Below are positions 3,509-57,773 of a stretch of 64,000 bases of DNA, piece after piece. The position numbers and the translations under genes are program-made. This DNA is from a virus, in IMG/VR virus record IMGVR_UViG_3300001598_000053, positions 1,029 to 65,028 of that record. One strand, written 5' to 3'. The notes below the pieces were generated by a model. It made no database searches and was not told where the DNA came from. It was given only the letters and a program-made list of their open reading frames with translations. Numbering within the stretch: the stretch's first letter is position 1; the number at the start of each line of letters is the position of its first letter.

Positions 3509-4366
3509 ATGATGGAGGTAAGCATAGTGAAACCAATTATAAAATGGGTCGGAGGCAAAACGCAATTGCTTCCTGCCTTACGAAAATACTTTAATAAAGA
3601 AGATATGCGCGGACACACCCTCTATGAGCCTTTCATCGGAGGTGGAGCATTGACTCTTGACTTAGCACATGAGAGCACAGTCCTCAACGATTTGAACTCA
3701 GAGCTGATAAACATGTATGAAGTAGTCAGAGATTATCCAGATGAATTGATTCTGTTGTTAAAGCAATACAGAGATATGCACAGTGAGACTCTATATTATC
3801 ACTTGCGCAACCTAGACAGAGAAGAATCATTCAAAGATTTCTCAAAAGTCAGCAAAGCGGCAAGAACAATCTACCTCAACAAGACTTGCTTCAATGGATT
3901 ATACAGAGTAAATAGCAAAGGATACTTTAATTCCCCTATGGGAAAGACAGCGTCTGGAAAAACGCCTGAGATAGTCAATGAAGACCAAATTAAGGAGATT
4001 TCAAAATACCTTAAGACTGTGAGAATCGAAAACACCTCGTTTTCGGCTGCAGTCAAAGATGCAAAACAAGGCGATTTCGTCTTCTTCGACCCTCCGTATG
4101 ACCAAGATGAGGATATCAACTCAACTGGATTCGTAGGATATCAGAAGAACGGATGGACTAGAGACGATACCATCGCCCTTAAGAACCTTTGTGATGAACT
4201 TACTTCTAAAGGAGTTCATGTCGTACTGACGAATAACGACACTTCATATGTAAGAGAGCTTTTTGCTGATTATGAAATAGAAGCAGTAGACGTCAGACGT
4301 AACATAAACAGAAACGGTTCTGCGAGAAAAGGCAGAGAAGTCATCATTAGCAATAAGCTAAATTAA
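3509..4366 (+). CDS. dam: DNA adenine methyltransferase (Dam family)
   Basis: Motif I EPFIGGGA and motif IV FFDPPYD; probable true start GTG at 3526 (SD GGAGG 8 nt upstream). Confidence 0.85.
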   Translation: MMEVSIVKPIIKWVGGKTQLLPALRKYFNKEDMRGHTLYEPFIGGGALTLDLAHESTVLNDLNSELINMYEVVRDYPDELILLLKQYRDMHSETLYYHLRNLDREESFKDFSKVSKAARTIYLNKTCFNGLYRVNSKGYFNSPMGKTASGKTPEIVNEDQIKEISKYLKTVRIENTSFSAAVKDAKQGDFVFFDPPYDQDEDINSTGFVGYQKNGWTRDDTIALKNLCDELTSKGVHVVLTNNDTSYVRELFADYEIEAVDVRRNINRNGSARKGREVIISNKLN

Positions 4367-4489
4367 ACTGTATATTACTTTGGATGATATACACAATGCG
4401 CCTCAGATTGCGCATGTTGTTCATTTTAGTATATCGCACGCGAGACAGGAATCGTTTGCGGAATATCGAAAACTAACAGGAGAGCATAA

Positions 4490-4958
4490 AATGAAACACG
4501 TATTTTTATCAGAAAAACTAAACAAGTATTTCGAGTCTGAACTTGACTGCGTTAAAGCAGAGAAAGAACTCGAAGAAGCAGAAGCTAAGAAAAGAGAATT
4601 AGCCAATGCAAAGAAAGCCGAAGCAGCTAAAGTAGAAGATGCATTCAAGAAACTAAACGCTGCAAAGAAAAATTTAAATGAAGTAGCAGAAGCAGCTGGC
4701 AAAGCATATGTCGCTGCAGTTCGCGAAGCAAAGAAGATCTACGACGCCGCATTCGCAAATGCAAATAAGAGCAAAGAAGAGGCAGAAGCTGAATTCAACA
4801 AGCAATTAGAGATCTTCAACAAAGCACATCCAGAAGGATTCCATCTAACTCTCAGAGACGGCGATGTCGTTAAGACTTACTCAACCACTAGCAGAGTCGA
4901 TGCCTTCGAAGAGCTTAAGTCTTTAGAAGACAAACTCTGGAAAATGCTTTTGGGCTAA
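4490..4958 (+). CDS. K/A/E-rich coiled-coil hypothetical protein
   Basis: ORF; SD AGGAGA before ATG 4490 (longest ORF begins at 4380 without a ribosome-binding site). Confidence 0.5.
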
Positions 4959-5210
4959 AATAAAATAATTAAATTTTCTGAGGCAATTTAATTAAATTTA
5001 CAACCTATTTATTGTATAATATCTTAGGGAACAACAAAGCAGAATACATAAGCTTAGTTCTCCCGAATTCATAGTTCGTGGGAACTTCGCATATGTCCCA
5101 CACCTCCTTTCTGGAATACCGTGGTACGCATGATGTTAATCCTCCAGCATCCTGCGAGCAATGCCACGGTATTTTTTATTTAATGCGAGGAACTAAAGGA
5201 GAAATTTATT

Positions 5211-5636
5211 ATGGAAGAGAATCAAAATTTAAATAGAAGTCTAGATAATCTAGTAGAGTTAATGAAGACTGCTAATGAAGGAGAGCATGTAAGATTCCAT
5301 TTCATTAGAAACACGGCAGAGCTATCAGCAGTAAGACAGTTCAGAAGTAAGAATAAGAAAATTTCAAAAGCTTTTGGAAAGGTATTTAATACTGCACTAA
5401 AATCGTATAATGATATGGTGAAAGCTGGACGCGGACCAGTAGAAGATATAGTCGCAGTAAAGCAATTTGAGACCTGTAAGAACTATTATGCGGAAGAAGC
5501 CAGAATTTTAGATGATATGGTTGATGAGTACATGAATTATGTTCACAAAGGACACTTGATCGCCACCATCCTTAACATCTATCGCCCAGAAGAAGACCTA
5601 GTAGATTACAGAGATGGAGGATGGATCATATGGTAG
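5211..5636 (+). CDS. hypothetical protein
   Basis: ORF; SD AAAGGAGA. Confidence 0.55.
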   Translation: MEENQNLNRSLDNLVELMKTANEGEHVRFHFIRNTAELSAVRQFRSKNKKISKAFGKVFNTALKSYNDMVKAGRGPVEDIVAVKQFETCKNYYAEEARILDDMVDEYMNYVHKGHLIATILNIYRPEEDLVDYRDGGWIIW

Positions 5637-5872: not shown

Positions 5873-6025
5873 TTCCGAAAACTACCTATTTTCAAATGCA
5901 GAATATTGGCCGATCACAGGCCTTTTATACATTAAAAAATGCTAAATTAATTACCTACAAGCATAATAACTTTGTGGGAATAAACAGAGAGAATAACAGA
6001 TAACTGACTCTCGGAAGGAACACAT

Positions 6026-8218
6026 ATGAAAGTAATTAAACGCGACGGAACATCAGTCAGTTTTGACAGTTCCAAAATCAATTCAGCCATCTCAAAAGCC
6101 AACACTAGAAGCAATGAGATGACACCAGATGATATCGACCATATCGTTGATATCGTAGAAGCAAGATGCAATAGAAACACAGATAATCTATCAGTAGAGA
6201 TTATCCAAGACCTGGTTGAAAGAGCCTTACTCGCAAGTAAGTTCAAAGCAACCGCAAAACAGTATATCCTTTACAGAGACCAAAGAACTAGAATCAGACA
6301 GTCGAAGACGAAGATGATGCAAGAGATTCTAGAAATGGTAGAAGGAAATTCTGACTACTGGAACAATGAGAATTCAAACAAAGATGCAAAGGTAGTAACG
6401 ACACAGAGAGATTATTTAGCTGGAATTACTTCCACAGAGATCGCAGAGATGTCGCTGTTGCCATCGGATGTAGTAAGAGCTCACAAAGAAGGAATCATCC
6501 ACTTCCATGATATGGACTATTTCGCTCAAGCTGCACTTCACAATTGTGATTTGATTAACTTAGAAGATATGCTTCAGAATGGGACAATGATCAACGGAAT
6601 CAAGATCGATCGCCCACATTGGCTTAGTAAAGCAGCAACTATTTCTACTCAGATCATTACAGCCGTAGCTTCTTCACAGTACGGTGGTTGTACAATCACA
6701 TTAACTCACTTAGCGCCTTTTGTAAGAGACAGTTACAATAAGTATCTGGCAAAATACAAAAGAAGAGGATGCACAGAAGAAGATGTAGTAAAATTTGCTA
6801 AAGAGGATTTAGCCACAGAATTAGAGTCAGCTGTACAGACTTTCAATTACCAAATCAACTCAATGTCAACTACTAACGGTCAAGCACCATTCATCACAGT
6901 CGGTATGTACGTTGGCGAATCAGAAGAATATAAAGAAGAAACTGCTTTACTAATCGAGGAATTCTTGAAACAGAGAATCATCGGCATGAAGAATGAGAAA
7001 GGCGTTTACATTACGCCAGCATTCCCTAAGTTAGTTTATGTATTGGAAGAAGATAATATTAAACCTGATTCAAAATATTACTATTTGACAGAACTCGCTG
7101 CAAAATGCACCGCTAAGAGAATGGTTCCAGATTACGTTTCTGAGAAAGTCATGAAACAGTTGAAGTTCAATGCTGACGGAACATCTTCTTGCTATCCTCC
7201 AATGGGATGCAGATCATTCCTGACTCCTGACAGATTCTCAGATTTACTAGGAAACGTATCTAACGCAAAGGATTTCGTCCCTGGCAAACCAAAGTTCTAC
7301 GGAAGATTCAATCAAGGAGTCGTAACGATCAGCTTACCTGATGCTGCGTTATCTTCTGGTGGAGACTTTACTAAATTCTGGAAGATCATGGATGAGAGAT
7401 TAGAGCTTTGCCACAAAGCTTTGAGATGCAGACATGAAAGATTGCTAGGAAAATTCTCAGACATGGCACCAATCCTATGGCAGGACGGCGCGCTAGCAAG
7501 ATTAGATAAGCACGAGAAGATCGATAAGCTTCTGTACGGTGGATATTCTACTATTTCACTAGGATACGGCGGACTATATGAGTGCGTTAAATTTATGACA
7601 GGTCATTCTCATACAGATGGAGCAGAAGGAGAGAAGTTCGGACTTGAAGTAATGCAAAAGCTGAATGATGCTTGTGCAAAATGGAAGTCAGAAGAGAACA
7701 TCGACTACTCTGTCTATGGAACTCCGATGGAATCTACTACTTATAAATTTGCAAAGTGCTTGAAGAAGAGATTTGGAGTAATTGAGGGAATTACAGACAG
7801 AGATTACATCACAAACTCATATCACATTCCAGTATTCGAGGAAATTGACGCATTTTCAAAATTAGCGATCGAGTCTAAATTCCAAAAGCTTTCTCCAGGA
7901 GGAGCAATCAGCTACATCGAGACTTCTGACCTTACTGGAAATATCCCAGCAGTCATGTCAGTGATCCAATTCATCTACGATAATATCATGTATGCTGAGT
8001 TGAATACTAAATCAGACTACTGTCAAGCTTGTGGTTATGACGGAGAGATTCTAATTGACGATCATATGAATTGGTACTGCCCAAATTGCGGTTGTAAAGA
8101 TCATTCTTTACTAAATGTCGCTAGAAGAACTTGTGGTTACATCGGATCAAAGTTCTGGAACTACGGAAGAACCGAAGAGATCAAAGAGAGAGTTATCCAT
8201 CTTGGAGATGAGCAGTAA
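6026..8218 (+). CDS. nrdD: anaerobic ribonucleoside-triphosphate reductase (class III)
   Basis: N-terminal ATP-cone (VIKRDG), C-terminal zinc ribbon CQACG...CPNCG and glycyl-radical motif RRTCGYIG. Confidence 0.9.
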   Translation: MKVIKRDGTSVSFDSSKINSAISKANTRSNEMTPDDIDHIVDIVEARCNRNTDNLSVEIIQDLVERALLASKFKATAKQYILYRDQRTRIRQSKTKMMQEILEMVEGNSDYWNNENSNKDAKVVTTQRDYLAGITSTEIAEMSLLPSDVVRAHKEGIIHFHDMDYFAQAALHNCDLINLEDMLQNGTMINGIKIDRPHWLSKAATISTQIITAVASSQYGGCTITLTHLAPFVRDSYNKYLAKYKRRGCTEEDVVKFAKEDLATELESAVQTFNYQINSMSTTNGQAPFITVGMYVGESEEYKEETALLIEEFLKQRIIGMKNEKGVYITPAFPKLVYVLEEDNIKPDSKYYYLTELAAKCTAKRMVPDYVSEKVMKQLKFNADGTSSCYPPMGCRSFLTPDRFSDLLGNVSNAKDFVPGKPKFYGRFNQGVVTISLPDAALSSGGDFTKFWKIMDERLELCHKALRCRHERLLGKFSDMAPILWQDGALARLDKHEKIDKLLYGGYSTISLGYGGLYECVKFMTGHSHTDGAEGEKFGLEVMQKLNDACAKWKSEENIDYSVYGTPMESTTYKFAKCLKKRFGVIEGITDRDYITNSYHIPVFEEIDAFSKLAIESKFQKLSPGGAISYIETSDLTGNIPAVMSVIQFIYDNIMYAELNTKSDYCQACGYDGEILIDDHMNWYCPNCGCKDHSLLNVARRTCGYIGSKFWNYGRTEEIKERVIHLGDEQ

Positions 8219-11456: not shown

Positions 11457-11538
11457 AATAAAAATATTTTCAAAAAGCCGTTTACAAAAGACGGCTTTTA
11501 TGTTATAATATAAATGTAAGATAAATGGAGGAAAAACT

Positions 11539-11871
11539 ATGAAATATTTATTATTACAATCAAGAGCTTCGCACGAAGGCGAAGAAAATCATGTAGAGTT
11601 AGAAGTGGTTAACTGCAATATTTTTAACACAATTTCAGAAATCAGAGAAGCAGTCGAAGAAGAGTTTGAGCAAGAGCGTGAATATTATTACGGCGACGAT
11701 GAAGAAGCCTTTGAGAGAGTGGCAAAGAATTTTAATCTTAATAGTCATATCAGCTCAAATAGCTTTGAAGGCAAGAGAATTGGAATCGAATATGAAATCG
11801 CTTCTTTCAAAGACGAAAGCTATGACTATCAAACAAATATCATTTGGACAGTAGTCAAGATTGGAGACTAA
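11539..11871 (+). CDS. hypothetical early protein
   Basis: promoter/terminator unit 11476-11512; SD GGAGG. Confidence 0.6.
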   Translation: MKYLLLQSRASHEGEENHVELEVVNCNIFNTISEIREAVEEEFEQEREYYYGDDEEAFERVAKNFNLNSHISSNSFEGKRIGIEYEIASFKDESYDYQTNIIWTVVKIGD

Positions 11872-11873
11872 TC

Positions 11874-12206
11874 ATGAAGACTTGGGATTCTAAGATCGTA
11901 GACTTTCTAGCAAACTACAATACTGTGCGCATTAAAGGAAAGTACGAATTCTGCCAGCTTGAGAAGATCATGAACTCTGTAGGACTTACATTGACAAGCA
12001 GAGAGACTTTCGAAGCTCGCTGTGCTTCTACTAAGAGATACTATGCAGAACACGGACAGAAATATGAATTAGCAGATGATGAGCTTATCTTAGAGTATGC
12101 TAATCACAAAGGAGTATGCGTTGGCTGGAGAAGTGCAGAAGAATCTAGAAATTGGTATGGAGTTGAGCCATTATCAGTTTATGATTTGATTTCTGATTTA
12201 AATTAA
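11874..12206 (+). CDS. hypothetical early protein
   Basis: ORF, SD GGAGA, start ATG 11874. Confidence 0.5.
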   Translation: MKTWDSKIVDFLANYNTVRIKGKYEFCQLEKIMNSVGLTLTSRETFEARCASTKRYYAEHGQKYELADDELILEYANHKGVCVGWRSAEESRNWYGVEPLSVYDLISDLN

Positions 12207-20191: not shown

Positions 20192-21049
20192 CATAGACAA
20201 TGGTTGGTAAACCAAGTCAAGCCGAGGGTTATGAGAAACTAACTTAGAGGCATTGCTAAAGCTTCCCTCCTTTCTGAATTAAATAATCTTACAGTGAGCA
20301 CAACGTAAAAGCGCTAACATACAAAGGCGGAACCGCACCTAGTCGACGAGGTATAGAAAGCGGGGCAACGCAACACCGGAACCTAAAGCTGACGATTGTC
20401 GCAACAAGTCGTTCGAACCGACGCTAATCATGGAATAGGCGAGTTGTGCCTGGTGTAAGGTTATTTAGTTAACCTGTTAACATTTTTCTTTACCTCCCTT
20501 TCTGAAAAGACCTCAACTTCAAGTTGGGGCCTTTTTATTTTCCATTGGAACTACAAACCAAAATCCTTCGCTGATCTTCGGTTCTGTCAGGATTACAATT
20601 CTAGTAAATTTTTACTGAGAAGAACAGAATCCAATGTACATGCACGATGTGCACGATCTGTACATTAACCCGCATGTGTAGTACATTTTTTCTAAATTTC
20701 TAATTGTGGATCAAAATTTAATATCTCACACTGTATTATATACTGTGAGTGCTCGAAGAGAGTATCCACCAGACGATACACTTTTCTCCTTTCGTCTGAA
20801 GAATCACAGGAACTCCTTTATTGCCGTTTGACTACGGCTGTAGACTCATGTTGAGTCTAATGACTCAAGTTTTCCTCCTTGCAAAAATACACTTAATAGA
20901 TTGTTTTTCATAATAACTGTGATTCAATTTGGGCATGACCATTTGGTTGTGCCTTTTTCTATTTTCTAAAATAATTTTATCAAAAGGATTTACAAAGGTA
21001 AGATTATATGATATAATATATATATGTAAAGATAAAGGAGATTACTAAT

Positions 21050-23205: not shown

Positions 23206-23784
23206 TTCCTTGATAATTTATATTAAAGTCTCTTAAAAGCCGTTAGAACGCGAATTTTGGCATTGTGTATTTATATGAACACAAATGCCTTTATGTAGGG
23301 AAATCCAAATGTCTTACAGCACATTTTCCAACAATACGATCGTGGGAAATTTAGGAGGATTCATATTCTGCTTTTACTAAATTTCTGCGAAACGGTTGCG
23401 GATACAGGTCGGTCATCCCAGAGTTCTTACCGTGCACTGTACATGTAGGGAAATCCAGATGTATTTACTTTACTAGAATTCAGAGGGGCAGATTTTTGGT
23501 GGTCTAGGGTATAACCAAAAATCTGCCTTGGTCCTAGTAAAAATTTACTAGAGATGTTAATATGATCCTTCCCCTAAGGGGAAGGATCATATTAAAGTTT
23601 TGATTCGGGTAGACAGTGACAAACGGTTGAGAATTTTACTGAGAAGAATTCATGTACACCATACAGATCCCCACATGTGACTGTCTTGGGTTAGATGAAA
23701 AAAATAAAAAAGTTTTAATTTAGGGGTTTGCAAAAAACCCTTTTTATGTTATAATATACTTGTAAAGATAAAGGAGAATAAAAT

Positions 23785-24960: not shown

Positions 24961-25073
24961 ACGACTTCAATGATTGATGGACGATAATACTTCAAAAAAC
25001 AAAAAGGGCTATTTACAAATGGCCTTTTTTATGTTATAATATACGTGTAATCGAAAGAGAGGTAAAAAAGATT

Positions 25074-25337
25074 ATGGAAAAAAGAAAGTTTATGGTTGTT
25101 GTTAGAGAAGTTGTAGTTGATGGTTTTGGTGGTAATTTTGATATTGTGTTGAAGAAGTTTGATGATAAGAGTGATAGTTATAAGATTGTTGAGAGAAGTG
25201 AAGTGTTTGATAATATTGGTGATTGTTTGAGTGAATTGTATGAAGTTGAATATGGTTGGTATGAGAAGTATGGAATTAGAAATAATGGTGGAGATGAGTT
25301 TAGAATTAAGATGGATGTTAAAGTTTGTAGAATGTAA
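25074..25337 (+). CDS. hypothetical protein encoded by a cytosine-free ORF
   Basis: ORF with SD AGAGAGG; promoter/terminator unit upstream; coding strand 25053-25388 has zero C; product lacks P, H, Q, A, T. Confidence 0.5.
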   Translation: MEKRKFMVVVREVVVDGFGGNFDIVLKKFDDKSDSYKIVERSEVFDNIGDCLSELYEVEYGWYEKYGIRNNGGDEFRIKMDVKVCRM

Positions 25338-25454
25338 ATAATTATAATAATGAAATAGTTTAAAAATATTTATAATTATGTTTAAAAACTATTTACAAAG
25401 TCTGGCATCTATGGTATAATATTATTGTAAATAAAGAAAGGAAAAAATCTAATT

Positions 25455-25916
25455 ATGGAAAAGAAATCATTTAATTGGCATGGAAAGACTTATTACTTTT
25501 TAGGAAAGGACAAAGGCGGAATAAACTATTACCTTCAACAACCAAGTTGGGACTGCGGTTGGTATTGGGGTTTTGGATACATTAACTCATTCACGAACAA
25601 CTCTGCTCCATCTTGCTCGAGAGACATCAGTTCTCATCAGCACTTTGACTCATTGTTCTTAAGCGGAGATTTGGACAGTTTCAAAAACATGTTCGAAGAA
25701 ACTCCGTTGAGCAAAAACGAAGTTTGGACTCTTATGGAATTGATGCAGACATTCTATGATTTGAGAAGAAGTGCAGAACTCTTCGGAAGAGGCGGAACTC
25801 ATATCGCTAACAACCCTCTCAAAGAACAGTTGAGAGACTCAGACTTTGCTAAGCACATCAATGAAGATTTGATTCCGCAAGTCACCGCGAAAGTCATTGA
25901 ACTCTTAACGAAATAA
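25455..25916 (+). CDS. hypothetical protein
   Basis: promoter 25392-25425; ORF. Confidence 0.55.
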   Translation: MEKKSFNWHGKTYYFLGKDKGGINYYLQQPSWDCGWYWGFGYINSFTNNSAPSCSRDISSHQHFDSLFLSGDLDSFKNMFEETPLSKNEVWTLMELMQTFYDLRRSAELFGRGGTHIANNPLKEQLRDSDFAKHINEDLIPQVTAKVIELLTK

Positions 25917-25999
25917 AAAAACAAAACAAGACCTTCTTGATTGAAGGTCTTTTTATTTTCTGCTTCGGCAGTTTTATCCAACTGTGCCTAGGGGAGGAT

Positions 26000-26365
26000 T
26001 CGCATGATTGAATTTAGTAAATAGTAAATTTTCGTTGAGCGCACAGATCTGTGGAAGGATTCAGGATGGGGCTGTACAGAAGATGAAGTAAATTTAGTAA
26101 AGCCTGTCAGAACGATCTGAATCTGGGAAACGGTTCTGACAGACCCTGCTGAACCGCAAATTTAGTAAACTGTAATCCTGACCAAAGCCGGATACTGTAC
26201 ATGAGACTGTACAGGTCTGTCGCATGATGCTTCACAGAATTTAGTAAACTCAGCATCAACCTGGAAAGGAGTCATGGAAAATTTGGGATGGGCCTAGGCT
26301 GATCGATCCATCTTGGATTTCTAGTAAACGCTTACTATGATGACATCCAAGAATCCTCCTCCCCG
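26000..26365 (+). repeat. array of five ~75-bp units each ending in AATTTAGTAAA, bracketed by an 11-nt long-range inverted repeat (GGGGAGGATTC ... GAATCCTCCTCCCC)
   Basis: core motif at 26019, 26092, 26159, 26238, 26315 (degenerate); internal hairpins CTGTCAGAAC/GTTCTGACAG, CTGTACA/TGTACAG. Confidence 0.6.
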
Positions 26366-26491
26366 GATCTGAACAAAGGAGGAGTTCTAAAAAATATTTT
26401 AATTATTTTCATAAAAGGTATTTGCAGAACTTATAATATATGTTATAATAATATTGTAAGAAGGATAAAGAAAGAATAGAGGTAAACGAAT

Positions 26492-26917
26492 ATGAAAATT
26501 AAATATTATACATTAAGCTATAGAACAATGAGATTTGAAGGCAAAGGCGAACCAGCAGGATTTAGTTATGACACTTATGTAAAGTCTACAAATAAAGCTG
26601 ATTGCATGGCTCTTGTTAGAAAACACAGTTTAGAATTGGTCGATGAACATGATGCTTATGCTGATGGCTTCGTAATCGACACTCATGAGATTGAGTTAGA
26701 TATTGTCACAGGAGAAGACAGATTGGTAAGACATGCACAAGAAGACGCACGCAAGCGCGCTGAATACGAAGCTGCTAAGAAAGCTCGTGAAGAAAGAAAA
26801 GCCCGCGGCGAGTTCAATTTCTTCGACTCAGAATTCTGGACAGCTGAAAGAGTAGCTGAGGCTAATAAGGAACTTAGTGCATTTGGAATTCATATCGTCA
26901 ACTGCGGCGGAAAATAG
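26492..26917 (+). CDS. hypothetical protein
   Basis: promoter 26418-26452; SD AGAGGT. Confidence 0.55.
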   Translation: MKIKYYTLSYRTMRFEGKGEPAGFSYDTYVKSTNKADCMALVRKHSLELVDEHDAYADGFVIDTHEIELDIVTGEDRLVRHAQEDARKRAEYEAAKKAREERKARGEFNFFDSEFWTAERVAEANKELSAFGIHIVNCGGK

Positions 26918-33899: not shown

Positions 33900-34547
33900 A
33901 TGGCTAGGCATCTAAACACTCTAGTATCAGGAATATTGTCTGGTGTGCTGATCGCTATAGGCGGGACGGCATTCTTACTGACTAAGCAGTATAGCGTAGT
34001 AGTTGCGAGCTTCATGTTCTCTATAGGCTTGTTCGCCATCATAGCACTTAAGCTGAATCTCTACACCGGCAAGATTGGATATGCTTTTGCGAATAAGAAA
34101 TCATACATACTAGACTTATTGATTATCTATCTTGGCAATGCCATTGGAGTTTTCATGTGCGGGCTATTCGCATATTTGGCTAAATTGCCGTTTAGTGAAA
34201 TAGCCAATGAGGTCTGTGCCACAAAGCTGTCTGACGTATCTTATTTAGGATTGGCAGTGAAAAGCGTAGGATGCGGCATATTGATATTCTTAGCCGTTGA
34301 GCTGCAGAAGAGAGACCTAGATGCCATATGGAAACTGTTTGGCATAGTGGTTTGTATCATGGCTTTTATCCTATCTGGATTTGAGCATTGCATCGCCGAC
34401 ATGTTCTATCTATTTGCTGCAGGATGCTATTCGGCCAAAGCAGTTGTTTTCATTGCGGTAGTCACATTAGGCAATAGCATAGGGTCTATTATTTTTAGAC
34501 AGGCGCTCGACTTATTGTCTAAAACTAGCAAAAGCAATATTGTATAA
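33900..34547 (+). CDS. polytopic membrane protein (possible small-molecule/nucleoside transporter)
   Basis: 6-7 predicted hydrophobic helices; sits in nucleotide-salvage cluster. Confidence 0.45.
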   Translation: MARHLNTLVSGILSGVLIAIGGTAFLLTKQYSVVVASFMFSIGLFAIIALKLNLYTGKIGYAFANKKSYILDLLIIYLGNAIGVFMCGLFAYLAKLPFSEIANEVCATKLSDVSYLGLAVKSVGCGILIFLAVELQKRDLDAIWKLFGIVVCIMAFILSGFEHCIADMFYLFAAGCYSAKAVVFIAVVTLGNSIGSIIFRQALDLLSKTSKSNIV

Positions 34548-37332: not shown

Positions 37333-38750
37333 ATGAATACTTTAATTAAATTCAGCAATTTCATCACAGCCATTTTTGCTTCTAATAGCAGATTATACAA
37401 AGAGGCAGTATTAAAAGAATATTCAAATGACAATGATATTAAGTATCTTCTTAATTTCTTATTGAATCCGTATATCACAACTGGCATCTCAGATAAAAAG
37501 TTCTTAAAAATGGAGCTTATGCCAAACAGAGAGATTCTTATTCCAGACGCGTCTTTATTCAATCTATTAGATTACATAAAGACTCATAATACTGGTGCTG
37601 ACAATTATTTAGAGACAGTTGCAAACTATTATCATAGACATGAATTAAATACTTCATTTCTATTGCCAATATTCAGAGGCTTGATAACGAAGAATCTGCC
37701 GTTAGGAATAGATGCTAAGACTGTCAATAAGATTATTCCTGGCCTAATTCCGACCTTCAATGTTCAGTTGGCCAATAAGTATTTCGATAATCCAAAAATC
37801 GTAGAAGGAAAGAAATTCGCATTGACGACGAAAATCGACGGCGGCAGAATCATAGCCATCAAGAAAAATGGCACAGCGAAATTCTATACAAGACAGGGCC
37901 AAGAATATGAAGGACTTGTAGATTTAAAAGAAGAGATGGAAAGATATATGCCAGATAATATTTGCTTAGATGGCGAAATAACTTTGCTAAATCCATACAT
38001 TCCAGCATTCGATTTTATAGCAGGAGTTGAGAGCACGAAAAAATTATCTTCAAAAGAACAATATAAAGAGACTATGAAGATAACTAGAAAAGACGGTGAA
38101 AAGCATGGCGTTAAAATGCTGGTGTTTGACTATATGACAGCAGATGAGTTTGAAGCCCAAACATGTGATAAGCCATACGGTCAACGCAGACAGATGCTTC
38201 AAGCTATTTGGGGAAAGCACTATGTTAAGCATAGAGCATTTCAATGTGGCGGACAGGATAAGCTAGTCAGCATGCAATTAGGCGCAATAGATGAAAGCAT
38301 CATGAAAACAGCATTTAATTTTTTGAGATTCTTCCTTTGCTTTATATAGGCGATGACACATCAGAGATTTTGAAATTATTAGATACTAATATCAAAGCCG
38401 GTGAAGAAGGCATAATGATCAACATTTTGGATGCGCCATATGAATTCAAGCGAACAAACAATCTATTGAAGGTCAAGAAAATGAATGATTTAGATTTAGA
38501 AGTAGTTGGATTCGAAGAAGGCTCAAATCGCCATTCTGGACGTCTAGGAGCACTTCTCGTAGACTATAAAGGAAATATTGTAAAAGTAGGTTCTGGTTTC
38601 TCAGACGAGCTCAGAGATGAAATCTGGAAGCATCAAGATGAATGGCTTGGAAGAACAATCGTAGTTCAATATTTCGAGGAAACCACGAATGACCAAGGCG
38701 GAATATCTCTTAGATTTCCTGTATATTTAGACTACAGAACAGATAAATAA
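37333..38750 (+). CDS. ATP-dependent DNA ligase, reading frame split at T6 homopolymer (38319-38324)
   Basis: Motif I KIDGGR in ORF 37333-38349; motif IV/V EGIMINIL, LLKVKK and OB domain in ORF 38337-38750; one extra T would fuse the frames. Confidence 0.7.
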
Positions 38751-49765: not shown

Positions 49766-52700
49766 ATGGCACAGATAACAAAACCAATAATGCTCGATGA
49801 AACCGGAAAAGATATAGTTGAGCAATTAGAACAATTGAACAACGTAGCCGTAGGAGTAAAAGGTGACAAGGGCGATAAAGGAGATGCCGGCGCTGATGGC
49901 AAGTCTCCACATATAGATGAGTCTACAGGCCACTGGTTTATTGGAACTGAAGACACTGGAGTAGTTGCAAAAGGTGAAAAAGGTGATAAGGGTGACAATG
50001 GCTCTGAAGTGTCAGCTAGCGATACAGGCACAAGTACAACAGTTGCAAAATATATAACAATTGATGATACAGAATATAAATTAGGTGGAAGTGGTGAGAT
50101 GTCAAAATCTGACATGGAAGCTAAAGGTATGGTATCATCAGTAAATGGTATTAATCCAGTTAGTGGCAATGTGACTATTGAAGTATCTAGCGGAGGAATA
50201 TCCGATGCAAAGAAAAAAGCTGAGCTATCTTATTACCGTTATATGGAAAACACAGCTGGTGATACAGTTAAGCCATATATGAAAGCATTGAGAAATGCGA
50301 CATTAGATATGGATGAATTTAAAAAATTAGGCTCTGGTCTATTTATTCACTGGGGTGTTTATTCAGTGCCAGCTGGAACATATACGGGTCCAAAAGTTGA
50401 AACTGCAACAACGACCACGACAAAAATGACAAGAAACTGCGAATGGGCGTTGAGAGACATGGGAATTCCTCTAGATACATATAGAAATTTTCAAGATCAA
50501 TTTACAGGAACTGAATTTGACCCAGAAGAAATAACTCAAATGGCAGTTGACTGTGGTATGAAATATATCATTATTACTGCAAAACACCATGAAGGATTCT
50601 CACTATATCCAACAAATTATGGACAGTGGGATATTAGAGAATCAGCCTGTAGAACAACAATTTTAGATGAATTAAAAGCTGCTTGCGATGCAAGAGGCCT
50701 AAAATTTGGTGTTTATTATTCACAATATTGGGACTGGGAGGCTGTCGGTGGATATGGATTAAATCATGGTGGCAAATGGACGACAACCGATCCATACACA
50801 TCTGCTCAACACTCAAAATTTATAGCAGACGTTGCTAATCAGGTTGAAGAAATCGTTGAGAAATATGATCCATATATCTTATGGTGGGATCCAGGAACGA
50901 AGTATACTGATGGATGCCAAGAAACTTTGAGAGCCGCTGAAAATGCAAGATGGCCTCAAGTTATCACTAACGATCGTTTAGATTATAATAGAGACTATGG
51001 CGACTATGGAACGGGTGAAAGAACCATTTATTTAAAAGATAGTGGAACTAGACAATTAGATTAGGGCGAATCTTGCTTTACGTTAAATAATACTTGGGGC
51101 TATTCACAAAATAACGAAACAGAGTCTTGGTATTATACACCAGAAAAAATATTTAAAGAATTCTGGCTATACACTATTTCAAATGGCCAAAACTGTTTAA
51201 TGAATATTGGACCTAAACCAGATGGTTCTATTCCTGATTTAACTAAAACAAGATGAAATCAAATGAAAACATTCATTCAAAATTATAGTAGTGGTAGCTT
51301 CTATAATTATAAGAAAATGTTCAAAACTACTCGTCCAACTTGGGGATATGCAGTAGGTTTCCCAAATAACAGCGTATATTGTTATGTTATCTCTACTAAC
51401 AATACATTAAGTGCTGAGACAATAATTGACGGTGTTGATACGACTGGACTAAAAACAACAAATCCAATTGAGATTTTAACTCCAGGAACAAATGCATCAT
51501 ACGAGATATTAGATAATTATAGAATCAAAATTACAAATCTAGCTCTTGATACAACAACTAAAATTGGTGTGGTCAAGTTAAACTATGCGGCTGACCCACT
51601 ATTAGTAGATGCTGTAGCCATGACTGATTCATATAGAATCCCAATGTCAGTATTTATTCCAAATTATTCATTCAAAGATTCATATACTGTAGCAAGCAAA
51701 CAGTATTCTTTAGGAAAAGGAAAGACGTTATCAAGCAATCCTGAAATTATTTTGGTAGACGACGATATGTATTGCAGTGCTAGACTTGATATTAACTATA
51801 GTGCAAATCAAACTGGCTCATATATTACTGAAATAACAATTACTGATAAAGCAGATTCTACAAATACAAGCACATTAACAATAAATTGTCCATCTAAAAC
51901 AGCTATTGTAAAAGAAAGTACTGATGTATTCCATTTTGAAAATGGACATAGATATAGTATTACTTATAAAACTTCTTCGTCAAGTACTGATACGACAGCA
52001 GCTACACACATGGCATTTACATTCTTCAAGAATGAAGACGCAGCAGTAACAGGTGTAACGCTTGCTCCAGACACAGCAGAAATGAACCCTGGAGATGAAG
52101 GTGTTATTTATACAGCAACAGTAGCGCCAGCAAACGCAGCCAATAAAAACGTAACATTCTCTTGTGAAAATGCAAATGTAACGTTAACACCTATTGGCCA
52201 AAATCAAGTAAAAGCGGTTGGAACAGGATATCAACAAATTAATACTACTATAAAAGTTACTACAGAAGATGGTGGATTTGAAGCAACATCTGCATTTAGC
52301 TACAATGTAACATTAGCAGAAACAGTTACGGTATCCCCAAATGGATTAACATTACCAATTAATTCAGCCGATGCCGCTACATTGACAGCCACAGTTGCTC
52401 CCGAAACAGCATCATTCAAAGAAGTTAATTGGTCAACAAGCAATGCGGCTGTAGCTACAGTAAATAATGGCGTAATCAACACATTAGCTGAAGGAACGGC
52501 TACTATCACAGCAACATCAAAAGACGGAGCTGCTAGCGGAACAGCCAATATAGCAGTTCAAGATATTCAAGTCATTCCAGTCGATAGCGTATCATTAGAT
52601 GTAAATACATTAGATTTAATGGAATGTGAATTAGCAACACTAAATGCAACTGTATTACCAGCTAATGCAACATTTAAAGCATTGACTTGGGAATCTAATA

Positions 52701-56041: not shown

Positions 56042-56160
56042 CATTCTCGCATTCACTCGTTGCCTATTGCCTAGGTGGAAATCGCACTAGCAAAGTGCCA
56101 TCTCGGACAAGAGTTGATTACTCCATACAAGTAATTGAGTGAATCTTGAATATAAATGAA

Positions 56161-56203
56161 AACACACTCTCGACCATATAGGTCATATGAGAGTGTGTTT
56201 TCT
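56161..56203 (+). terminator. intrinsic terminator: 11-bp perfect stem AACACACTCTC / GAGAGTGTGTT + T-tract
   Basis: follows tail fibre gene stop (56041). Confidence 0.7.
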
Positions 56204-56232
56204 TGTGCTAAAAGGTAATAAGGAAATGACAA

Positions 56233-56264
56233 GCCGAAGAGTAAAGGAGGGAAACCTCTTCGGC
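56233..56264 (-). terminator. hairpin GCCGAAGAG / CTCTTCGGC, terminator for minus-strand ORF 56269-56964 (bidirectional pair with 56161-56203)
   Basis: 9-bp stem immediately after the minus-strand ORF stop. Confidence 0.55.
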
Positions 56265-56268
56265 AATA

Positions 56269-56964
56269 TTATTTTAACATATCGATGAGCATTGTTACAA
56301 TAGTAGCCGTTTCTTGCCGGTCGAAATTGCAAGAGCCTTGGAAGAACATAGTCAATAAATCACGATACTCCACAGATTGTTTATACGATTGAATGATTAG
56401 CTTATTATGTCGGTCATTGACATACAATTGTAATCTATTAGGGTCGAAGAGACCATCGTACTTTTCAATCCATACTCGATAGTCCTCTTTGTGCATCTTG
56501 TCCCAATAAATCCAAAATGACAGGGTGATGTCATTGTAGCCTAGTCGATACCAAAGATGAGTTTGTCTTGGTTTCTCGATGATTTCATATCTGTCTTTTG
56601 TGAGTACCTTGTTGTTGTAGTGATACTCTGCATATGTTGTGCCTTGTGTCCACCGATAGAGAGGTGTTTCTTCTTCCAGTTTTAGCAACTCTTCTTTGGT
56701 TGGGCATTTCTCGACATACAAGCCTCGATTTCTGTCTATGTATGACTTCTCAAACTCTGGAATGTTGAAATAGGTGATGTATGGCATAAACAAGTCGAGA
56801 TTATTGGACAAGAGGAACAACTTGTAATCCTTCCTAGTTCGTGTGATCGTTGAGACCAACTCCAAGAGATGATGTGGTTCATCCTTGAGGTAGTGCTTAT
56901 TCGAACCTCTCATCAAGCCGACTTCATCATAGATGATGTATTGGTCTCGAACGTAAAAAAGCAA
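56269..56964 (-). CDS. hypothetical protein (only sizeable minus-strand ORF); Walker-B-like IIYDEVG, possible truncated P-loop ATPase
   Basis: ORF bounded by bidirectional hairpin terminators; no Walker A found upstream (in-frame stop 8 codons before start). Confidence 0.4.
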   Translation of the reverse strand: MLFYVRDQYIIYDEVGLMRGSNKHYLKDEPHHLLELVSTITRTRKDYKLFLLSNNLDLFMPYITYFNIPEFEKSYIDRNRGLYVEKCPTKEELLKLEEETPLYRWTQGTTYAEYHYNNKVLTKDRYEIIEKPRQTHLWYRLGYNDITLSFWIYWDKMHKEDYRVWIEKYDGLFDPNRLQLYVNDRHNKLIIQSYKQSVEYRDLLTMFFQGSCNFDRQETATIVTMLIDMLK

Positions 56965-56975
56965 GCGGTTGGGTA

Positions 56976-57752: not shown

Positions 57753-57773
57753 CTATTTGCTAAATTAATTGAT
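57753..57773 (+). promoter_or_regulatory. putative late promoter motif CTATTTGCTAAATTAATTGAT
   Basis: upstream of phoH; identical 19/21 to the 53953 copy. Confidence 0.5.

Follow-up and report, generated by a model that had tools for sequence, protein, structure and literature searches.

The 64,000-nucleotide stretch analyzed here (the window; positions 1,029 to 65,028 of IMG/VR record IMGVR_UViG_3300001598_000053, with all coordinates below counted from its first letter) comes from a new large phage with a Firmicute-type host and contains a cassette of about 370 bp (25991-26364), a cis element that is real, non-random and sharply delimited. The cassette consists of repeated copies of an 11-base word between two inward-facing end elements, and it lies in the last of three related non-coding islands, R1 (20192-21049), R2 (23214-23784) and R3 (25917-26491, the island with the array). 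Our preferred, still tentative, reading is that the cassette may well be a multi-site docking array for a sequence-specific DNA-binding protein, of the iteron kind, and that the docking protein is probably encoded by the phage itself.

The word AATTTAGTAAA was found four times in exact form on the plus strand of the array (26011-26021, 26091-26101, 26159-26169 and 26238-26248), with start-to-start distances of 80, 68 and 79 bp, and a fifth copy about 79 bp further on is degenerate by a one-base insertion (ATTTCTAGTAAA, 26317-26328, plus strand). The window as a whole holds eight exact copies, compared to 0.21 expected from shuffled sequences, and the 9-mer TTTAGTAAA occurs ten times (1.54 expected). 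Directly after the first copy, and abutting it, the heptamer TAGTAAA is repeated (26022-26028, plus strand), and the core of the word, TTTA-S-TAAA, is nearly palindromic. A previous reading of the same DNA, based on the letters only (the sequence-only reading), had described five tandem units of about 75 bp. The five-fold array was confirmed in the form of four exact cores and a degenerate one; the coordinates given there (left arm of the enclosing inverted repeat at 26005, first core at 26019) deviate by as much as about 14 nt. The proposed homology of the units was not borne out, as they are not repeats of each other: a MAFFT alignment of all five was invariant only in the core, Tandem Repeats Finder reported no array and only a 7-nt doublet, and no more than 11-13 nt are common. 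An old duplication, of about 220 nt, has left faint traces (TCGCATGAT occurs twice at a spacing of 220, and ATTCAGGATGGGGCT and ATTTGGGATGGGCCT at a spacing of 222), and the array probably grew via duplication, followed by divergence everywhere but in the words. As the copies are alike without any similarity in their flanks, strong selection has acted on the 11-13 bp word only, as is the case for protein-binding sites. The exact 11-mer also occurs at 7367, 8470 and 43646 inside coding sequence (nrdD, nrdG and the start of open reading frame (ORF) 43640), where it is read in frame as N-L-V-K/N or F-T-K-F; these three copies probably reflect codon usage rather than function.

The ends of the cassette are formed by an inverted repeat, GGAGGATTC (25993-26001) and GAATCCTCC (26351-26359), which is exact over 9 nt and extends to GGGGAGGATTC and GAATCCTCC-T-CCCC with one bulge. 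The long-range inverted repeat of 11 nt in the sequence-only reading therefore exists, with shifted arm coordinates. Each of its arms is the outer half of an element made up of two parts (the two-part element), GGAGGATTC-N12/13-TA(C/G)TAA. In R3, these outer halves correspond to the pair GGGGAGGATTC / GAATCCTCCTCCCC noted earlier, and the inner halves are provided by word copy 1 and by the right arm of a palindrome at 26322. The full pattern, GGA(A/G)GGAT(T)C-N12/13-TA(C/G)TAA, has four matches in the window and none in 2.25 Mb of other loci. The four copies are located at 23354 (plus strand) and 23572 (minus strand) in R2 and at 25993 (plus strand) and 26359 (minus strand) in R3, so that inward-facing pairs bracket one cassette of 219 bp in R2 (23354-23572) and one of 367 bp in R3 (25993-26359). 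The inverted repeat alone is only modestly unusual and gains its significance as a part of the two-part element found four times. The spacers of the element have kept their length (12-13 nt) and are unrelated in sequence; a base-by-base comparison of the two R3 spacers showed 2 of 13 positions to be alike and no complementarity. Such fixed spacing with free sequence is expected of two-part protein-binding or promoter-type sites. In contrast, an RNA helix closing the region would carry a 13x13 internal loop and needs no spacers of equal length. As the equal-length spacers are neither conserved nor complementary, the closed RNA domain of roughly 350 nt that had been proposed for the array is not the best reading.

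The same vocabulary is restricted to the three non-coding islands, which share words in both orientations. R2 contains the same 11-mer in opposite orientation (23373-23383), and variants of the TTCTAGTAAA type are present in the islands. The palindrome TAGTAAA-NN-TTTACTA (16 bp, at most one mismatch) occurs three times in the 64 kb, once per island (20602, 23535 and 26322), and was seen just a few times across 2.2 Mb of other DNA that had been fetched, loci selected for the word itself aside; as RNA it would form a hairpin with a 2-nt loop. In addition, seven of the 19 copies of TGTACA in the genome are located within the islands, which make up about 2% of the sequence, and ACAGATC/GATCTGT is enriched there. 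The word GTCAGGATTACA is found on the plus strand in R1 and on the minus strand in R3, ACAGATCTGT likewise recurs among the islands, TTTTACTGAGAAGAA..ATGTACA is common to R1 and R2, and TCTG(C/G)GAAACGGTT is common to R2 and R3. Many of these common words are DNA palindromes. The right element of R2 overlaps an 18-bp terminator stem (23557-23595). Taken together, the short words, the palindrome and the occurrence in both orientations favor a protein-binding DNA array. A separate part of R1, R1a (20192-20545), is GC-richer non-coding sequence that ends in a good terminator (20511-20529); its predicted fold, at a z-score of only -1.2, has a long-range stem, and no Rfam match was obtained for it.

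The array stretch (25917-26491) lies between the genes of a protein of 153 amino acids (aa; 25455-25916) and a 141-aa protein (26492-26917), both on the plus strand. The cassette is insulated from early transcription, since the terminator of the upstream gene and a second hairpin precede it and the next promoter is directed away from it (Table 1). No sigma-70-like site was identified on the plus strand between 25420 and 26408, and none inside the cassette. The early promoters of the phage are represented by 27 near-consensus sites, TTTACAAA-N13-TGnTATAAT, all on the plus strand between 2972 and 30161 and many with an A-rich tract ahead; as they span 2.9 to 30.1 kb, the array is located in the middle of the early region. 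At two of these promoters, 22866 and 23722, the -35 element is placed inside the loop of the preceding terminator hairpin. The stretch from 26385 to 26470, with 20-28% GC, doubles as UP element and promoter of the 141-aa gene.

If the cassette is a docking array, the recognition unit would be the heptamer TAGTAAA, extended to RAATTTAGTAAA. It would be bound as direct repeats, of which there are six copies on the plus strand, spaced by 7 and then by about 70-80 bp, and the one 16-bp palindrome TAGTAAA-NN-TTTACTA would suit a dimer. The heptamer would also act as the inner half of an inward two-part site (GGAGGATTC-N13-TAGTAA) at each cassette end. Initiators occupy iterons in monomeric and inverted repeats in dimeric form. 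In a similar way, binding along the cassette, with oligomerization or DNA looping to bridge both ends, would lead to a nucleoprotein complex. As to its role, we would guess at an origin-like or organizing site for a DNA transaction, i.e., replication initiation or control, by analogy with iteron origins and with the untranslated regions in the terminal repeat of phage T5.

Iteron origins such as lambda ori, P1 oriR, pSC101, R6K and T4 oriE resemble the cassette in having at least three direct repeats in one orientation (here four exact and one degenerate) in non-coding DNA, an inverted-repeat version of the word nearby (here 26322-26337) and unconserved spacers. They differ in that iterons of about 20 bp are phased at about 22 bp, as compared to a word of 11-13 bp at distances of 68-80 bp. 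In addition, the islands contain no DnaA boxes, no initiator gene is adjacent, and there are two or three related islands. The AT-rich stretch next to the array, at most a candidate unwinding element, is at the same time the UP element and promoter of the 141-aa gene. The likeness to iterons suggested by the sequence-only reading thus holds for the exact one-orientation repeats, the palindromic version of the word and the unconserved spacers; it does not extend to the spacing, the DnaA boxes and the initiator gene. A second comparison is offered by the left terminal repeat of T5, in which three untranslated regions share repeats of the direct and the inverted kind as well as palindromes (Davison, bioRxiv 10.1101/866236). 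These regions are a candidate injection stop signal; this role is unproven, and a function at the DNA level is assumed (bioRxiv 10.1101/866236). As in T5, three untranslated islands are situated among (pre-)early genes with very strong sigma-70-type promoters. In contrast to T5, the paired DnaA boxes that define its regions are absent here, there is no sequence similarity to any INPHARED phage, the host is of the Firmicute type rather than E. coli, and the islands are known from a metagenomic contig whereas those of T5 are in the terminal repeat.

Several results weigh against the docking array. The spacing of 68-80 bp is unlike that of classical iterons and places adjacent sites about half a helical turn out of phase. 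DnaA boxes (TTWTNCACA) number eight in the window, close to the 8.8 expected, with none in the islands, and the GC skew is without inflection. Searches with approximately 70 ORFs of the window against Pfam or PHROGs gave no helix-turn-helix, winged-helix, Rep or RTP-like match. The flanking proteins are without recognizable domain and, within the window, no initiator gene is located next to the array; an AlphaFold model of the 141-aa protein was unusable (predicted local distance difference test score, pLDDT, of 51). The array was found in no related genome, so that conservation provides no confirmation. Furthermore, R1b and R2 end in strong plus-strand terminators with no ORF ahead, which suggests that non-coding transcripts are made there, and three G-U pairs favor folding of the plus strand, extending the stem of unit 2 on that strand only.

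The search for relatives was broad. A DNA search of the INPHARED phages gave no match, and the phage appeared as a singleton when flanking and nearby proteins were searched in IMG/VR and in a set of 5.8 billion proteins. Among these 5.8 billion, the downstream 141-aa protein had no relative but itself; the best relative of the upstream 153-aa protein reached 57% identity and belongs to non-syntenic phages. The single other assembly (Logan SRR1221442) is 100% identical and has the same orientation. Scans of viral, metagenome and genome collections for pairs and triples of the words returned only ordinary tandem repeats or chance pairs. An unrelated phage (IMGVR_UViG_3300035698_012812, minus strand 4190-4370; L066) carries three intergenic copies of a perfect 19-bp palindrome, TTTACTAAAATTTAGTAAA, 68-94 bp apart; these have the same half-word everted and look like an operator set, and we judged their likeness to the array to be coincidental. 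A contig of Logan SRR21773858 (L143) with similar early promoters contains eight copies of AAATATTTTACTC in one orientation and with irregular spacing in non-coding islands (1-1347, 4806-5438 and 11524-11973), and this set may be an analogous array with a different word.

As the main rival we kept a structured non-coding RNA of about 370 nt on the plus strand, to which a sister RNA of about 210 nt would correspond in R2, because of the terminators, the 3' module, the G-U pairs and the GGA count; as an explanation of the cassette we consider it rather unlikely. In such an RNA, a 5' GGGGAGGAUUC would pair with a 3' GAAUCCUCCUCCCC, with a local CUCCUCC/GGAGGAG hairpin as the competing structure, and the five AAUUUAGUAAA would be sites for an RNA-binding protein or for the UUUACUAAAUUU of the R2 RNA, as in a sponge or hub RNA. 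Beside the plus-strand terminators of R1b and R2 and the longer plus-strand stem of unit 2, an RNA is indicated by the 3' module of palindrome, purine run and C-rich hairpin, which lies in the same plus orientation in both R2 and R3. Copies 2 and 3 are perfectly complementary over 12 nt to the R2 word, R1 holds a perfect 12-nt complement next to copy 3, and the plus strand contains 15 GGA in 406 nt, more than any other segment of the genome. The closing helix was present in both the minimum-energy and the centroid fold, and the long-range duplex of R3 (-22.7 kcal/mol, against -15.6 +/- 3.2 for shuffled sequences) was better than 487 of 500 shuffles, with the remaining 13 as good. However, the pairing in R2 was not significant (72 of 500 shuffles were as good), and duplex energies of whole islands are uninformative for sequences of such length. 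The fold of the whole region was only slightly better than shuffles (z-scores of -1.9 on the plus and -2.4 on the minus strand), and four of the five units folded no better than shuffles; the only hairpin to beat them, that of unit 2, did so roughly equally on both strands. Accordingly, a hairpin in each unit, as claimed in the earlier reading, can be maintained for unit 2, where it is significant, and extends to a stem in unit 3 and a palindrome in unit 1, while in unit 4 no hairpin above shuffles was found. Rfam searches with the three islands gave nothing at gathering score, and only terminator-driven noise at E-values up to 10. In addition, R3 is preceded by two stop hairpins and no promoter, the hairpin at its 3' end has no proper U tail, the words occur in both orientations though the genes run one way, and the equal-length, non-complementary spacers at the two ends are not needed by an RNA helix.

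A promoter-like nature of the elements appears less likely again, and was considered in two versions. In the first, the two-part sites would be inward-pointing promoters of a phage-specific class, with a -10 of the TAAAT type and a GGAGGA box some 16-17 bp upstream of it, and each cassette would be transcribed convergently. Middle promoters of phages T4 (MotA box) and SPO1 (gp28) provide a comparison for such a layout of upstream box and -10. In the second, the minus-strand words TTTACTAAATT would bind RNA polymerase or a late factor, serving either as decoys or as starts of antisense transcripts that end at the bidirectional terminator. In its geometry, the two-part element does fit a -35/-10 pair, and a good minus-strand terminator is present at 25951-25928. 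The second version draws on the late (or possibly middle) promoters of the phage: the reverse complement of the word, TTTACTAAATT, is identical at 10 of 11 positions to the late promoter core TTTGCTAAATT, including the TAAATT hexamer, and array site P1 agrees with the promoter at 57756 at 21 of 29 positions when compared by eye. The resemblance between word and late core is real.

The late core TTTGCTAAATT occurs at five intergenic plus-strand sites in the 30-64 kb region (32079, 35847, 53956, 57756 and 63368), each time after a terminator and 25-35 nt ahead of a ribosome-binding site. The promoter-like class to which it belongs, T(T/A)TTTGCTAAATTA(W)(W)TGATA, precedes the genes at 30-64 kb and has weaker sites at 5938, 30642 and 59581; we read its core as a putative extended -10 (TGn TAAATT), downstream of which ATTGAT is conserved. 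No less than 118 IMG/VR loci contain the exact 18-mer TTTGCTAAATTAWTTGAT, with roughly 90 chance matches expected by a rough estimate. An estimated 70% or so of the matches listed share this promoter context, and two to four copies are present on several contigs of 90-230 kb among them. The 18-nt late promoter would thus seem to be widespread among uncultured phages, including jumbo phages; a literature search by sequence returned primers only and no paper describing the 18-mer as a promoter.

A membership of the array sites in this late class was rejected, as a weight matrix gave 28-36 bits for the five members and 7.5 bits for the best array site (rank 18). The array words share 10 of 11 core positions with the class, but in all of them an A replaces its invariant G, which removes the TG of the apparent extended -10. 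This G is present in 151 of the 155 core copies of relatives, and none of the four copies with an A is in promoter context. The array words are also without the downstream ATTGAT, the orientation of the array is opposite to that of all genes, and neither arrays of the A variant nor any comparable array were found in the fetched parts of promoter-sharing relatives (1.1 Mb). In addition, the three inner words have no GGAGGA box upstream, no sigma factor or RNA polymerase gene was found in the window, and R2 has no terminator on the minus strand.

A combination of these two rivals, to which we give slightly less credence still, would see R2, R3 and a degenerate R1 as a new class of phage cis elements, in which the inward two-part sites are convergent phage-specific promoters and the resulting RNAs interact. 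The R3 plus-strand RNA with its five AAUUUAGUAAA would then sponge the UUUACUAAAUUU seed of the R2 RNA and the 12-nt seed of R1, and through the likeness of the DNA words to the late -10 core, the RNA circuit would be linked to the switch from early to late expression.

Two further explanations are improbable, and to an equal degree. The first is a mobile or invertible segment, i.e., an element resembling a miniature inverted-repeat transposable element (MITE) or an inverton with inverted repeats of 11-14 bp and a site-specific recombinase, the flipping of which would turn the inner words around with respect to the early gene downstream. R2 (219 bp) and R3 (367 bp) are indeed short and bounded by inverted repeats, their inner words are oppositely oriented, and the outer ends, which begin with GGGG, and one inner end, TAAG, presumably recall the ends of the Tn3 family. 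However, no recombinase or transposase gene was found in the window, R3 has no target-site duplication (gccta on the left, ggatc on the right), the ends match in two short blocks, unlike full-length terminal inverted repeats, and the sole second assembly has the identical sequence in the same orientation. The second is a functionless, decaying remnant of an old tandem duplication. The traces of the 220-nt duplication are in line with it, and no conservation in other genomes can be shown; nevertheless, four cores have remained 100% identical in units that are otherwise diverged to the level of random sequence, and two other islands contain the same words and two-part ends again. Such selective sparing would not result from neutral decay.

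An array of the ToxI or CRISPR type, i.e., a precursor cut at the cores into small hairpin RNAs, is largely refuted and very improbable: although five cores in one orientation with differing sequences between them recall such arrays, and the AA/AU of the core has what we take to be a resemblance to the ToxN cleavage context, the units are not mutual repeats, the hairpins are inconsistent, there is no promoter upstream, and none of the ten neighboring ORFs matched ToxN, AbiE, Cas or other defense proteins (Pfam, PHROG, PADLOC). In ToxI, units of about 36 nt are repeated in near-identical form directly upstream of toxN. The array has in common with them a short one-orientation unit array and a phage-related context; it differs in that only 11-13 nt are common, at irregular spacing, without homologous repeats of about 34-36 nt and without a toxN-like gene (no match to a ToxN/AbiQ/CptN-type endoribonuclease was obtained for the downstream protein and its nine neighbors), and the earlier suggestion of a ToxI-like antitoxin RNA was not supported. 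The exclusion of a CRISPR array in the same reading was correct, given a core of 11-13 nt instead of repeats of at least 23 nt, the spacing of 80, 68, 79 and about 79, and no cas gene among the approximately 70 scanned ORFs of the window.

Two other known systems were considered as candidates. Type I toxin-antitoxin systems with par-like convergent RNAs were rejected, as neither strand of R1-R3 contains an ORF for a small hydrophobic peptide with a ribosome-binding site; a consistent leader peptide was not found there either. The Ter sites of B. subtilis, which are bound by RTP, have the consensus KMACTAANWNNWCTATGTACYAAATNTTC (PMC3317982). Compared to them, the minus-strand word agrees with the B-site core TGTACYAAAT at 9 of 10 positions and site P1 with WCTATGTACYAAAT at 13 of 14, a resemblance that was picked out post hoc from many known motifs. 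TGTACA is enriched in the islands, and the sites of R2 and R3 are opposed as in a fork trap. This candidate was rejected as well, since the sites reach 17-18 of the 25 specified positions of the full 29-nt consensus against a genome maximum of 19 elsewhere; no PF02334 or winged-helix match was obtained among the scanned ORFs of the window.

Table 1. Position and composition of the array, its sister islands and the signals around them.
Feature	Position	Strand	Remarks
R1 word cluster	20586-20664		GTCAGGATTACA, palindrome TAGTAAATTTTTACTG (20602-20617), TTTTACTGAGAAGAA, two TGTACA
R2 sister cassette	23354-23585		left element at 23354 (plus); perfect 16-bp palindrome at 23535-23550
R2 right two-part element		minus	G-rich half 23572-23564, preceded by GG at 23574-23573; TAGTAA half 23550-23545
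Intrinsic terminator of the upstream 153-aa gene	25928-25951	both	9-bp stem, T runs on both strands; z -2.84 (minus-strand 3' end)
CTGCTTCGGCAG hairpin (UUCG loop), then T run TTTTATCC	25960-25971	plus	second stop signal before the cassette, from sequence
Left two-part element, GGGGAGGATTC-N13-TAGTAAA	25991-26021	plus	inward; includes word copy 1
Unit 1, 12-bp palindrome CACAGATCTGTG	26042-26053		
Unit 2, 10-bp hairpin CTGTCAGAAC...GTTCTGACAG	26104-26142		z -3.2 (plus), -3.5 (minus)
Word copy 3, followed by TGTAATCCTGAC	26159-26169	plus	TGTAATCCTGAC recurs inverted in R1 (20586-20597)
Unit 3, 7-bp stem CTGTACA-N6-TGTACAG	26195-26214		contains two TGTACA words
R3 16-bp palindrome TAGTAAA-CG-CTTACTA	26322-26337		
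Right two-part element, GGGGAGGAGGATTC-N13-TAGTAAG	26332-26364	minus	inward
Hairpin CTCCTCC-N15-GGAGGAG	26356-26384	plus	competes for the C-rich arm; without proper U tail
Early sigma-70-type promoter TTTGCA-17-TATAAT with TG	26421-26449	plus	for the 141-aa gene; points away from the cassette

The genes of the phage are nearly all encoded on the plus strand, and six tRNAs are present in the window. Since some of the loci sharing the late promoter have genes in common with it as well as the same early promoter style, the window is probably a piece of a jumbo phage, the full genome of which probably exceeds 200 kb, going by relatives of 220-230 kb. The encoded functions include an anaerobic ribonucleotide reductase, two dCMP deaminases, a thymidine kinase, a split ATP-dependent ligase, PhoH and tail-fiber-like proteins. 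The best cultured matches of the helicase are from Bacillus, Clostridium and Streptococcus phages (34-38% identity), and the OB domain of the ligase is up to 75% identical to promoter-sharing IMG/VR loci. The ligase is split into overlapping ORFs for the adenylation domain (37333-38349) and the OB domain (38337-38750); in one relative (L153) it is a single ORF of 422 aa.

Further features were observed elsewhere in the window. An early ORF of 87 aa (25074-25337, plus strand) has its own consensus promoter and no family match, and the coding strand around 25050-25350 is free of cytosine over about 300 nt (GC skew +1.0). The only convincing minus-strand gene (56269-56964, 231 aa) matches Podovirus_Gp16, the phi29-type DNA encapsidation ATPase (E-value 1.7e-17), and has some 220 nt of structured non-coding sequence (56042-56260) at its flank; the region 56042-56975 may represent the insertion of a mobile element or a satellite-like module. 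A formate/nitrite transporter homologue (33900-34547, E-value 2.4e-29) and a protein with an alpha-L-fucosidase domain (49766-51064, E-value 1.1e-42) are possible auxiliary metabolic or host-glycan genes.

Little is understood of the large lytic phages of Firmicutes, in which origins, regulatory DNA sites and non-coding RNAs are mostly unmapped. With its 11-bp word, 16-bp palindrome and 29-bp end element, the cassette provides a compact handle for finding a putative DNA-binding protein in a lineage without a cultured member. The late 18-nt promoter, found at more than 100 loci of uncultured phages, including jumbo phages, may in addition aid genome annotation. Should it prove to act as origin or control site, the cassette would provide a first cis-acting landmark for this group of phages and a parallel to the unexplained repeat regions of T5.

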